From positions 32,001 through 96,000 of IMG/VR virus record IMGVR_UViG_3300030330_004956: a DNA stretch of 64,000 bases, one strand, 5' to 3'. The notes beneath the pieces were generated by a model that was not told where the DNA came from, ran no database searches, and saw nothing but the letters and a program-made list of their open reading frames with translations. Shown in pieces: positions 25,035 to 39,740 of this stretch; within the stretch, counting starts at the first letter, position 1, and every line of letters starts with the position of its first letter. The DNA is from a virus (lineage: Duplodnaviria; Caudoviricetes). A program made the position numbers and the translations under genes.

Positions 25035-25247
25035 ATGGCAAAAGGAAGTAACATCAAAGTGACTCCAAGAAGGAGAGAGTCACAAGACAGAATGATCAGA
25101 AGGTTCATTAAGAAATGTAAGAAATCAGGCATTATTGATGAAGCAAAGGAGCGCCGCTTCTATAAGAAGCCGTCTGAAAAACGCAACGAAAGAAACATTA
25201 AAAGACGCAGAGCTTTATCAAAAGCAAAAGAAAAAGGCAAAAGATGA
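25035..25247 (+). CDS. rpsU: Phage-encoded 30S ribosomal protein bS21
   Basis: 'IKV...ES.DRMIRRFIKKCKKSGIIDEAKERRFYKKPSEKR' matches the S21 pattern; 70 aa, highly basic. Confidence 0.9.
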   Translation: MAKGSNIKVTPRRRESQDRMIRRFIKKCKKSGIIDEAKERRFYKKPSEKRNERNIKRRRALSKAKEKGKR

Positions 25248-37639: not shown

Positions 37640-37678
37640 AGGCTCCAATCTCTTTGAGATTGGGGCTTTTCTTTTTTC
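37640..37678 (+). terminator. Rho-independent terminator after the MCP
   Basis: GCTCCAATCTC-TTT-GAGATTGGGGC followed by a T-rich tract. Confidence 0.85.
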
Positions 37679-37683
37679 TAGAA

Positions 37684-37692
37684 ACTACTTAT
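37684..37692 (+). promoter_or_regulatory. Late promoter motif ACTACTTAT
   Basis: Right after the MCP terminator and right before the structured RNA. Confidence 0.65.
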
Positions 37693-37693
37693 T

Positions 37694-37798
37694 ATAACTT
37701 GAGTTTATTCTCCTTGGGTGAGGCCACTACCCTAGAAAGAGAGTGTTCCGAAGTGGCTGGAATACGATCATTGACTAAAATCAGGTTATTGCAATAAC
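37694..37798 (+). ncRNA. Candidate structured RNA: three-way junction with kissing loops plus an alternative hairpin
   Basis: P1 37694-37707/37776-37789; P2 37709-37719/37729-37742; P3 37743-37750/37758-37765; loops GCCACT (37723-28) and AGTGGC (37752-57) are complementary. Confidence 0.6.
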
Positions 37799-37822
37799 AT
37801 AATTTTAAGGAGGAAATTAATT

Positions 37823-38404
37823 ATGGGAAATCGAAGAATTGGACGTAAAAGACTTTACGGCGTAGAAAAGGCTGGACAAAGAATTAATCTTGATTCCGGC
37901 GCAGGAATGAAAGATAATATTAAAAGTGCTAGTCAGCACAGACAAGGACAGGAGCTTATCACTGAAATCGCTGTTGACTTGCAAGGGTTGACATGTGCGG
38001 CTTCCGATAAGGGTATTATTGGACACGCTTCAAAGCCATCTTATATTACTCAACTCACTGAAGCTAACTATGGTATCGTTACTGAAATCAGAGTTGTGGT
38101 TGCTGAAACAATTACTAACACTGCTGATGATATTGGTGCAGAGGGAGTAGATGTTGAGGTTGGTGACGGCGCAGCCGGTATTGCCAACAACACCGGCGGA
38201 TCCGCTAACGGTGGTGGAACCCGTGTCGCCCTTACCCACGATGTACGTGTCAAAGGGGCAGATGCCAGCGCAACCAAGGATGCAAATGAATTAGCTGACG
38301 GCTATCTTTATGTAGTAAATGCCGAGTCTGCAACCAGTGACACAATGACTGCTGGTAAGCTTCTCATCTACATTCACGGATTTGTAGCACCTGCTGACAT
38401 CTAA
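37823..38404 (+). CDS. Putative capsid-associated protein, paralogue A
   Basis: Strong SD aaggagg; MGNRRIGRKRL...GKLLIYIHGFVAPADI. Confidence 0.55.
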   Translation: MGNRRIGRKRLYGVEKAGQRINLDSGAGMKDNIKSASQHRQGQELITEIAVDLQGLTCAASDKGIIGHASKPSYITQLTEANYGIVTEIRVVVAETITNTADDIGAEGVDVEVGDGAAGIANNTGGSANGGGTRVALTHDVRVKGADASATKDANELADGYLYVVNAESATSDTMTAGKLLIYIHGFVAPADI

Positions 38405-38438: not shown

Positions 38439-39401
38439 ATGGGAATTAGAAGATTAGGAAGAAAAAGATTAGCTGCTATTGAAAGCCATGGTATCAGAAA
38501 AGATATCAGCCCAAGCGCAGCAATGAAGAATGCAATCGTGTCTGCCGATCAACATCGCGAAGGGCATAAGGTTGTCACTGATATTGTTTTAGATCTCGGT
38601 GCCGCCAATGGTGGACTTAAAACTTTGGCTCTTGCAGATAAAGATCCAATTGGAACAACTGCCGCGGCAACTGCGCCATCATATGTTTGTCAGGTTACTG
38701 ATGCTGTATTTGGTACTGTTACATCTGTCGAAGTAATTTGCTTAGAGGCTATCACTGATGGCACTTTAACAGATTATGATGTTATGTTTGGTGATGACGA
38801 TGGATTTCTGGGAAGTGACGCTAGCAATGATACTGCAATCAAGACTGGCGTTGGAGCCAAAGGATATCACGAAATCGCTGAGTATGATGCTGAGAACCTT
38901 AAAAATAAGTATATCTACATCACGGCTGGAGCAGCAACAACACAAGTTGCAACTGCGACAATTTCAACTGCTGATGCCACTATCACAAACATGGTTAGTG
39001 GAAGCACCACAATTAGGCTGAAAGACTCATCCGGCGGCGCCGTCAACTTTGTTGCTGGCGCAGGTAATCATGATCAAGCTGGTGCAGATGGCATTATCAA
39101 GATTGGAGGCATGGTTTCTAAGGCAGATTTAGCCCAAGCTATTTCCAGAGGTATCAATGCTAATGCAGCTTTTAGTACCGATAGTGATAGCCAAGCCGGC
39201 TCATCTGAGACAGTAACTGTTTCACATGCTGCTGTTACGGCAACTAACAACCAGACTAACTTTCTCGTCAATGACGATCCAGAAGCATCTACCGGAATTT
39301 CCGTTGGTGCGTTCACTGGTGGGATTGATGATGGTGTAGCAATTTCTGGCGGTAAACTGCTTTTGAGATTCACAGGCTTTATGGAGCCAGACGATATCTA
39401 G
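38439..39401 (+). CDS. Putative capsid-associated protein, paralogue B (with inserted domain)
   Basis: MGIRRLGRKRL...GKLLLRFTGFMEPDDI; SD aaggagg. Confidence 0.55.
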   Translation: MGIRRLGRKRLAAIESHGIRKDISPSAAMKNAIVSADQHREGHKVVTDIVLDLGAANGGLKTLALADKDPIGTTAAATAPSYVCQVTDAVFGTVTSVEVICLEAITDGTLTDYDVMFGDDDGFLGSDASNDTAIKTGVGAKGYHEIAEYDAENLKNKYIYITAGAATTQVATATISTADATITNMVSGSTTIRLKDSSGGAVNFVAGAGNHDQAGADGIIKIGGMVSKADLAQAISRGINANAAFSTDSDSQAGSSETVTVSHAAVTATNNQTNFLVNDDPEASTGISVGAFTGGIDDGVAISGGKLLLRFTGFMEPDDI

Positions 39402-39426: not shown

Positions 39427-39456
39427 AAAGTCACTACGGAAGTAGTGGCTTTTTTT
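39427..39456 (+). terminator. Rho-independent terminator
   Basis: AAAGTCACTAC-GGAA-GTAGTGGCTTT followed by a T tract. Confidence 0.85.
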
Positions 39457-39466
39457 GTTTTTGTTG

Positions 39467-39475
39467 ACTATTTAC
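39467..39475 (+). promoter_or_regulatory. Late promoter motif ACTATTTAC
   Basis: After a terminator, before 39510. Confidence 0.7.
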
Positions 39476-39509
39476 TAAGAACATTTATTAAATAAAGGAG
39501 ACTATTTTT

Positions 39510-39740
39510 ATGTCCGGAAGAAGAAGAATGTTGGCTCTCAAAAGAAAACTGCAAGCCGCTGAATCGGCACAAAGTGCTGCTGAATCTAGAGCAGCCGCCG
39601 CTGAAAAGGCACAAAAAGAGGCAGAAGCCCGCGCAGCAGCAGCCGAAAAGGCACAAGCCGAAGCTGAAGCTGCCAAAGCCAAGCCGGCTCCAAAAAAGAG
39701 AGCACCATCCAGAACTAAAAAGGCATCACGCAAAGATTAA
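39510..39740 (+). CDS. Small basic Ala/Lys-rich protein
   Basis: Own late promoter and SD aaggag; RAAAAEKAQ twice. Confidence 0.6.
   Translation: MSGRRRMLALKRKLQAAESAQSAAESRAAAAEKAQKEAEARAAAAEKAQAEAEAAKAKPAPKKRAPSRTKKASRKD

Follow-up and report, generated by a model that had tools for sequence, protein, structure and literature searches.

In the leader of the maturation gene of MS2, an upstream complement of the SD closes a three-arm cloverleaf, the formation of which is delayed by a metastable 5' structure, and translation of the gene is possible only before the closing helix has formed (PMC4615214). The RNA element described here, which follows the major capsid protein (MCP) gene of a T4-like phage, resembles this Levivirus leader in that a complement of the SD lies about 80-100 nt upstream of it, that the long-distance helix of the closed state is predicted to enclose three hairpins (in the subtype to which the present sequence belongs), that a competing structure at the 5' end is proposed to keep the ribosome site open at first, and that the output of a low-copy virion protein would thereby be limited. 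However, the two are not related in sequence or evolution, the one being part of the mRNA of a dsDNA T4-like phage and the other the 5' end of an RNA-phage genome. Moreover, two of the three arms are locked here by a co-evolving 7-bp loop-loop helix that is lacking in MS2, the long-distance helix covaries in MS2 but not here, and a GC-rich subtype of the element has no nested alternative fold, unlike MS2.

A three-way junction closed by a helix P1, with P2 and P3 joined via their loops, is also the architecture of the purine riboswitch (RF00167), and like the translational adenine riboswitches the element lies in a 5' leader, shortly ahead of the ribosome-binding site. Yet, while purine riboswitches have 7-nt loops with two G-C pairs and base quadruples, the loops here comprise 9-13 nt and 6-7 contiguous Watson-Crick pairs, and the junction, with its pyrimidine-rich J1/2 and its variable or absent J2/3, is unlike the ligand pocket of the riboswitch. 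The gene context consists of structural proteins and includes neither a purine-related gene nor a candidate for a ligand. The RF00167 covariance model does not match the element, either at the gathering score in the 64-kb window (that is, the whole stretch of 64,000 nt analysed here, taken from a virus record of 185 kb in IMG/VR) or locally at E up to 10. A purine riboswitch was therefore rejected, given the missing model match, the longer contiguously paired loops and the unrelated junction. The pRNA of phi29 (RF00044) likewise comes from a phage and combines a three-way junction with a pair of loops that are complementary to each other, but it is a separate, abundant transcript of phi29-like podoviruses whereas the element most likely is an mRNA leader of a T4-like phage, and its loops pair over 4 nt between molecules to form a ring on the connector, as compared with seven complementary bases here; the RF00044 covariance model gave no match to the element.

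Loop-loop helices of 6-7 Watson-Crick pairs whose loops have unpaired purines at their 5' side are further known from the HIV-1 DIS, from ColE1 RNA I/II and from the kissing loops of the lysine (L2-L3) and cobalamin (L5-L13) riboswitches, the latter of which control access to the ribosome site through the kiss; all of them are comparable as a tertiary motif only. In sequence, junction and gene context the element is unrelated to all four. To our knowledge, few structured regulatory RNAs have been described for the late structural genes of dsDNA phages. Structured-RNA candidates were collected in bulk from IMG/VR by Fremin and Kyrpides in 2023 (PMC10690425), 8,495 of them unnamed. This catalogue draws on the same source, IMG/VR intergenic regions, and holds the same kind of object; its text describes no motif after the capsid gene of T4-like phages, and the element may be among its unnamed candidates.

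Position of the element between the capsid gene and a two-gene unit

The MCP encoded upstream of the element is of the gp23 type and 36-52% identical to the capsid proteins of distant T4-type phages. An analysis of this DNA from its letters alone (hereafter the sequence-only reading) had placed a terminator of the MCP gene and a late-promoter motif at 37684-92 ahead of the element, and both are present (Table 1). In nearly all relatives, too, a GC hairpin followed by a T run, equivalent to the terminator at 37640-78, is found upstream of the element.

Table 1. Coordinates of the element and of the surrounding features in the window.
Feature	Position	Strand	Remarks
MCP gene	35824-37611		matches PHROG 138 (major head protein), E = 1e-71
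Intrinsic terminator of the MCP gene	37640..37678	+	13-pair stem, then T run
Late-promoter-like motif A-C-T-A-Y-T-T-A-Y	37684..37692	+	from motif enrichment; putative promoter activity
Copies of the motif	7550, 10148, 23147, 25248, 34684, 37684, 39467, 39759, 42522, 45557	+	
P1, 5' strand	37696..37707	+	conserved core 37696-37701, one mismatch, then second 4-bp segment
J1/2 strand with CUCCU core (anti-SD)	37708..37715	+	complementary to 37808-37815
Hairpin P2	37716..37732	+	4-bp stem 37716-19/37729-32; 9-nt loop L2 37720-28; 37722-28 pair with L3
Hairpin P3	37743..37765	+	7-bp stem 37743-49/37759-65; 9-nt loop L3 37750-58; 37752-58 pair with L2
P1, 3' strand	37776..37787	+	conserved core 37782-37787
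Palindromic hairpin P4	37785..37798	+	14-nt palindrome; overlaps last bases of P1 3' strand
SD region and start codon	37807..37825	+	SD core 37809-13; ATG 37823-25; conserved in all relatives
First gene of the putatively regulated unit, 193 aa	37823..38404	+	Arg-rich N-terminus and beta-sandwich/jelly-roll body (predicted)
Second gene of the unit, 320-aa paralogue	38439..39401	+	BLASTP 38% identity, E = 2e-25
Terminator closing the two-gene unit	39427..39462	+	

The motif occurs ten times in the window, always on the plus strand, as compared with 2.2 copies expected on both strands. Eight of the ten copies are intergenic and lie directly upstream of ORFs, the other two being located inside ORFs. 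It looks like the late promoter of the clade and is unlike the T4 late consensus. The distance from the motif to the start of the ORFs, which belong to late structural genes, is 28-82 nt and mostly 28-62 nt, and the leaders of the other late genes are unstructured and only about 20-50 nt long after the motif; at 37684, in contrast, the distance amounts to 139 nt, the surplus length being the element. If the spacing is T4-like, which we take to be the case, the transcript would start at about 37697 and hence at P1. Among the matches listed in a blind search for relatives (see below), 113 of 114 distinct elements have the motif, ending 5-6 nt before the core of P1. At its other side the element ends about 25 nt upstream of the start codon, with SD and ATG so placed in every relative, and terminator prediction gave no terminator-like site between the element and the ATG; terminators on both sides (37640-78 and 39427-62) bound the two-gene unit. 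Since only 5-6 nt separate it from the motif and about 25 nt from a start codon, the element should be regarded as part of a messenger and not as a free RNA; most likely it is the 5' leader of a late message comprising the two genes downstream of the MCP gene. Of the two roles offered by the sequence-only reading this is the first, a leader of the genes at 37823 and 38439 (there proposed as a ligand- or protein-responsive switch), and it agrees with the absence of a terminator before the ATG as well as with the presence of the same gene family downstream in all cases. Short contigs from RNA libraries span 37641-37791 and 37801-37949, and one metatranscriptome contig also covers the terminator and the motif; these contigs are devoid of information on start or strand and may reflect DNA carry-over, and gaps in their coverage carry no meaning.

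A small ORF at 37654-37797 was considered as a coding sequence and rejected, as it spans the terminator, as the length differences among relatives are not multiples of three, and as the substitutions are pairwise compensatory. Just behind the terminator of the unit, at 39467-39540, a further copy of the motif is followed by a short leader and a small ORF, the first residues of which (M-S-G-R-R-R) are basic in character.

The 193-aa and the 320-aa protein have no match in Pfam or PHROG. Both paralogues have a nearly invariant basic N-terminus in front of a predicted jelly-roll body, with an extra insert of about 125 aa in the second. In the AlphaFold model of the 193-aa protein (pLDDT 79) a beta-sandwich lies behind a disordered or helical basic N-terminus. 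An exhaustive structural comparison has phage jelly-roll cement proteins among its top rows, namely those of cyanophage Pam1 (Z = 7.0), Helicobacter phage KHP40 (6.9), Ralstonia phage GP4 (6.6) and Bordetella phage BPP-1 (6.1), although unrelated folds, too, can attain Z scores of 6-7; a Foldseek search of the PDB returned weak cupin-like rows only, and BFVD only unnamed relatives. A capsid-accessory, cement-like role of the two proteins would fit the location of the unit beside the capsid gene. Conserved I/V-T-E-I motifs in the 193-aa protein (residues 46-49 and 86-89) resemble, speculatively, the sites of T4-type prohead proteases. Elsewhere in the head module, at 25035-25247, a gene for ribosomal protein bS21 is found (Pfam PF01165, E = 7.7e-13), and the late genes of the phage carry strong SD sites. 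This combination recalls the bS21 phages of Bacteroidota (PMC9723584) and the SD-blind ribosome of the Bacteroidia (PMC7797042).

Conservation and covariation of the folded element

Among the GenBank phages, neither megablast of the region nor tblastn of the 193-aa protein revealed a close relative, or a cultured phage carrying the element or the gene. On viral and metagenome contigs, however, 94 loci with homologues of this protein were found, mostly marine and including Tara, and the same leader is located upstream at every one of these loci with enough upstream DNA. A blind pattern, which prescribed nothing but the palindrome, the final bases of L3 and the pairs closing P3 and left L2 and the central bases of L3 free, retrieved at least 118 IMG/VR viral contigs, with 114 distinct elements among the matches listed. 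An earlier and looser DNA pattern had given 117 loci, most of which were chance matches and were sifted with the covariance model. On marine viral and metagenome contigs, the fold is retained in at least 136 distinct leaders homologous to the present one, and the gene behind each true instance encodes the same basic N-terminus. Judged from these sequences, the element belongs to a clade of uncultured marine T4-like phages. It is present as a single copy in the phage genome, in which a second copy was looked for and not found.

The element folds into a three-way junction of P1, P2 and P3 over 37693-37798 (about 105 nt), with L2 complementary to L3. Two main subtypes can be distinguished, the AT-rich one of the window, which has the palindrome, and a GC-rich one without it, in which P1 is a stronger two-part helix, P2 has 5 bp, L3 comprises 11-13 nt and the J2/3 spacer is missing; the linker between P2 and P3 measures about 10 nt in the former and 0-5 nt in the latter. 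Besides these, two rarer loop types exist. Two outlier members of the RNA family are found at L204:2043-2146 and on L233 (minus strand, near 1384): in one of them the palindrome is shortened to 12 nt and still perfectly self-complementary, and in the other the sequences of P1, P2 and P3 are altered and a rare version of the loop pair is present; the two would be of value in a seed alignment.

The significance of the structure derives from comparison with relatives and not from the single sequence. Taken alone, the sequence from the window has an MFE of -31.3 kcal/mol as compared with -25.8 +/- 3.5 kcal/mol for shuffled versions (z = -1.58), 13 of 200 shuffles fold as well, and its unconstrained MFE structure does not contain P1, 37708-15 being paired with the SD instead. 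When 43 distinct leaders were folded singly and free of any alignment, the same three-way junction was obtained in most of them, and RNAalifold predicts P1, P2 and P3 unaided. In MAFFT alignments of each subtype 95-96% of the cells that should be paired are paired, as opposed to 33-46% with the partners slid by 1-3 columns (30-47% over all alignments counted), and 6-8 pairs change on both sides. In a 35-sequence alignment of the more divergent members, which were aligned cleanly by a model from the subtype of the window, 11 pairs change on both sides, and none of 500 shuffles reaches the observed value in any of five measures. A covariance model built from the GC-rich subtype alone finds all members of the other subtype over the full model length. 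Two alignments were excluded from these counts, that is, a joint MAFFT alignment of both subtypes in which P3 and L3 were misaligned, and the one from the GC-rich-derived model, which had put many P3 hairpins of the other subtype in insert columns. On this comparative evidence the element is a genuine and strongly conserved folded RNA. The sequence-only reading had suggested covariation in relatives as a check, and P1 to P3 as well as the loop-loop pair all co-vary in these alignments.

With respect to the individual helices, the P1 proposed from the sequence, 37694-37707 with 37776-37789, is present with 13 pairs and one G/A mismatch. Its outermost three pairs (37694-96/37787-89) are specific to this genome and not conserved in relatives, the conserved core beginning at 37696/97. 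Covariation of P1 is strongest in the GC-rich subtype, where six pairs have changed on both sides with up to three pair types each. The core of P2 likewise holds (37716-19/37729-32), its stem being paired in 100% of cases with three of four pairs changed on both sides in the 35-sequence alignment. The lower extension that had been drawn below it (37710-15/37734-42) does not, as it is paired in 60% of cases only, without compensatory change and no better than the slid controls; the CUCCU strand is thus not kept by the relatives as part of P2. P3 was found as proposed, with five of seven pairs changed on both sides, and shows the strongest covariation in the subtype of the window. P4, which is absent from the GC-rich subtype, is nearly invariant, with 99% of cells paired. 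The relatives show no compensatory change in it but only changes that are wobble-compatible on the plus strand (GC/GU, AU/GU), which favours RNA over DNA as the level at which it acts, and P4 is best described as a candidate RNA structure. At the gathering score no Rfam family matches in the 64-kb window, and among Rfam matches near the element at E up to 10 the only one overlapping it is a 17-bit match to an unrelated family. Accordingly, the claim of an undescribed structured RNA of a late phage gene still stands after the Rfam search that had been proposed along with it.

The complementarity of the two loops, which had been noted for this one sequence, is conserved and covarying. It extends to seven pairs including a terminal G-U, and all seven positions are paired in 100% of the sequences in the 35-sequence alignment. 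For the two central pairs, four Watson-Crick versions exist, namely C-G/A-U (the version of the window), C-G/C-G (that of the GC-rich subtype), G-C/G-C and C-G/G-C, and the terminal pair alternates between U-A and U-G. Among the matches listed, all seven positions are complementary in each of the 114 distinct elements retrieved by the blind pattern. To explain the four versions, a minimum of three separate double substitutions is required, and a non-complementary intermediate was not seen. As demonstrated by compensatory change, L2 and L3 form a 7-bp loop-loop (kissing) helix, with predicted duplex energies of -10 to -12 kcal/mol. The 9-nt loops consist of two unpaired 5' purines and seven paired bases, as do the loops of coaxial kissing complexes, e.g. 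the HIV-1 DIS. Covariation as such cannot separate pairing within a molecule from pairing between molecules. A coaxial kiss requires a linker that spans the stack. In the GC-rich type the short linker between P2 and P3 goes together with a longer L3 (11-13 nt, that is 2-4 nt extra), and this trade-off is a weak hint, based on a single evolutionary split, at an intramolecular constraint.

The anti-SD strand, proposed translational control and competing explanations

The CUCCU at 37710-14 in J1/2 is complementary to the SD core at 37809-13, about 95 nt downstream. It is found in about 111 of the 114 blind-retrieved elements among the matches listed and in all subtypes, while the flanking helices vary. 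The anti-SD:SD duplex is predicted at -9.3 kcal/mol in the window and at a mean of -10.4 kcal/mol over 129 distinct leaders, and in the window as well as in about ten relatives the unconstrained MFE structure pairs CUCCU with the SD. Its flanks show no co-evolution (-10.43 kcal/mol observed as compared with -10.45 kcal/mol permuted, in the 129 leaders) and its core is invariant; since there is thus neither variation in the core nor co-evolution of the flanks, the arguments for this pairing are conservation and complementarity.

For the 129 full leaders, the best nested fold with the SD free was compared with the best fold in which CUCC:GGAG was enforced. The SD-paired fold is the more stable one by a mean of 1.8-2.6 kcal/mol in the type of the window and the two rarer loop types, where it wins or ties in about 80% of the sequences; in the type of the window the mean difference (SD-paired minus SD-free) is -1.9 kcal/mol. 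For the window itself the outcome depends on the 5' end, with -30.9 (SD-free) and -29.5 kcal/mol (SD-paired) from 37693 and -27.2 and -29.5 kcal/mol, respectively, from the predicted start at 37697. Hence the two states lie within about 2 kcal/mol of each other in this subtype. In the GC-rich subtype, in contrast, where P1 is much stronger and P4 missing, the nested SD-paired cloverleaf is unfavoured by a mean of +8.1 kcal/mol. In this subtype CUCCU may either contact the SD in a pseudoknot with P1 intact, for which the 11-19 nt from P1 to the SD would leave room, or have some other function in the junction. As a further and weak feature of the region, an AU-rich complementarity (C-A-U-A-A ... 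U-U-A-U-G) brackets the SD at 37797-37825, with the start codon in its 3' arm, and is found in both subtypes, e.g. at L004:2240-2269.

The reading that we prefer, and to which we would give about an even chance, is that the leader exerts cis-acting control over the translation of the two genes by SD sequestration, in the manner of the MS2 maturation leader. Transcription would start at the conserved upstream motif, and P1 would then hold the 5' end of the message. As P1 would be complete by the time the polymerase reaches the SD, the open form would be expected to precede the closed one. In the subtype of the window, a second and nearly isoenergetic fold would then become available in which P1 is open and P4 formed, P4 overlapping the end of P1 and possibly starting its displacement, and in which CUCCU pairs with the SD about 95 nt downstream, so that P2, P3 and P4 become the arms of a cloverleaf that is closed by the anti-SD:SD helix and hides the ribosome-binding site. 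The message would therefore begin in a translatable state and subsequently relax, or be driven, into a closed form that limits the output of two putative capsid-accessory (cement-like) proteins. The kissing P2-P3 module would be a rigid core in both states and the likeliest site for any factor. The built-in switch that had been seen in the mutual exclusion of P1 and the palindrome is thus borne out by the predicted folds as far as their competition goes; the palindrome, however, would be only a part of it, and the pairing of anti-SD with SD is the more telling competitor. Besides the lack of covariation in the anti-SD:SD pair and the unfavoured nested fold of the GC-rich subtype, what counts against SD sequestration is that it does not explain the role of the kissing helix.

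As a rival reading, the leader might be a factor-responsive operator or riboswitch, in which junction and kissing loops bind a trans-acting partner that shifts the balance between P1 and anti-SD. Such a reading, which appears possible but tentative, would refine the explanation by SD sequestration and not exclude it. The partner might be the Arg-rich N-terminus of the proteins themselves, resulting in autogenous repression as long as they are not yet on capsids, or else a small molecule or ion. In line with this, the bases of loops and junction show a conservation far beyond what a simple stem-loop would require, both paralogues open with the basic N-terminus described above, for which a short helix separate from the folded body is predicted, and the folds are poised within about 2 kcal/mol as would be expected for a switch tipped by a ligand; a precedent exists in T4, where autogenous translational control is established for gp32 and RegA. 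On the other hand, any ligand or protein partner is only putative, variants of the N-terminal peptide do not visibly covary with loop variants on inspection, a late structural operon would be an unusual place for a metabolite sensor, and the basic N-terminus could equally serve in capsid targeting or in contacts with DNA. The bolder version, in which the junction is a true sensor that either binds the Arg-rich N-termini of its own products, thus coupling synthesis to assembly, or kisses a second copy of the message, thus rendering translation concentration-dependent, must be regarded as doubtful.

Alternatively, the fold might be a passive stabiliser at the 5' end that protects the late message from 5'-end-dependent decay or fixes the efficiency of its translation without any switching. 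The position of P1, which begins 5-6 nt past the motif in 113 of the 114 elements listed and would leave the 5' end base-paired, is consistent with such a function, and so is the GC-rich P1, which is very stable and has no competing fold. Nevertheless we consider it rather unlikely, as protection would require neither P2 and P3, joined by a loop-loop helix of 7 bp that co-evolves, nor an invariant J1/2 complementary to the SD, and as the short leaders of other late genes after the same motif do without structure.

That L2 and L3 pair between molecules, so that the leader or a processed fragment forms dimers or rings that serve in assembly, packaging or concentration-dependent control, as in phi29 pRNA or the retroviral dimer initiation site, seems highly improbable. 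The 9-nt loops do match the coaxial kissing geometry known from, e.g., the HIV-1 DIS, and the linker of 0-5 nt in the GC-rich subtype looks short for an intramolecular coaxial kiss. However, this short linker goes with the longer L3, as would fit an intramolecular constraint. Also, the element is single-copy and not a separate transcript with a terminator of its own, the SD and ATG of one gene family always follow it (the ATG about 25 nt on), and the Rfam model of pRNA does not match. The phage, moreover, is T4-like with a gp23-type capsid protein, and we know of no packaging RNA in T4-like phages. The second role offered by the sequence-only reading, an oligomerising RNA of the virion or of packaging, is therefore not supported, and a function like that of pRNA is unlikely. 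Finally, it is barely credible that the palindrome at 37785-98 and the conserved blocks are protein-binding sites on the DNA, since for all the near invariance of the 14-nt palindrome and its lack of compensatory change the variation keeps G-U wobble on the plus strand only, and the dozens of compensatory changes in P1-P3 and in the loops have no rationale at the level of DNA.

Implications for marine T4-like phages

The element is an uncatalogued structured leader RNA, absent from Rfam, with an exceptionally well-supported kissing helix, for which control of translation is a plausible mechanism. It represents an RNA family that is abundant in the ocean virome, with at least 118 IMG/VR contigs in addition to Tara and other metagenomes. 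Its covariation is of textbook quality, and a loop-loop helix proven by compensatory change is a rare case. With about 105 nt, the compact and well-defined fold lends itself to probing, structure determination and reporter assays, and could enter Rfam. If the proposed anti-SD switch is true, the phage would meter an accessory capsid protein independently of the MCP, and if a protein or a second copy of the RNA acts on the leader, it would represent a class of RNA switches, new among dsDNA phages, that sense assembly or dosage.
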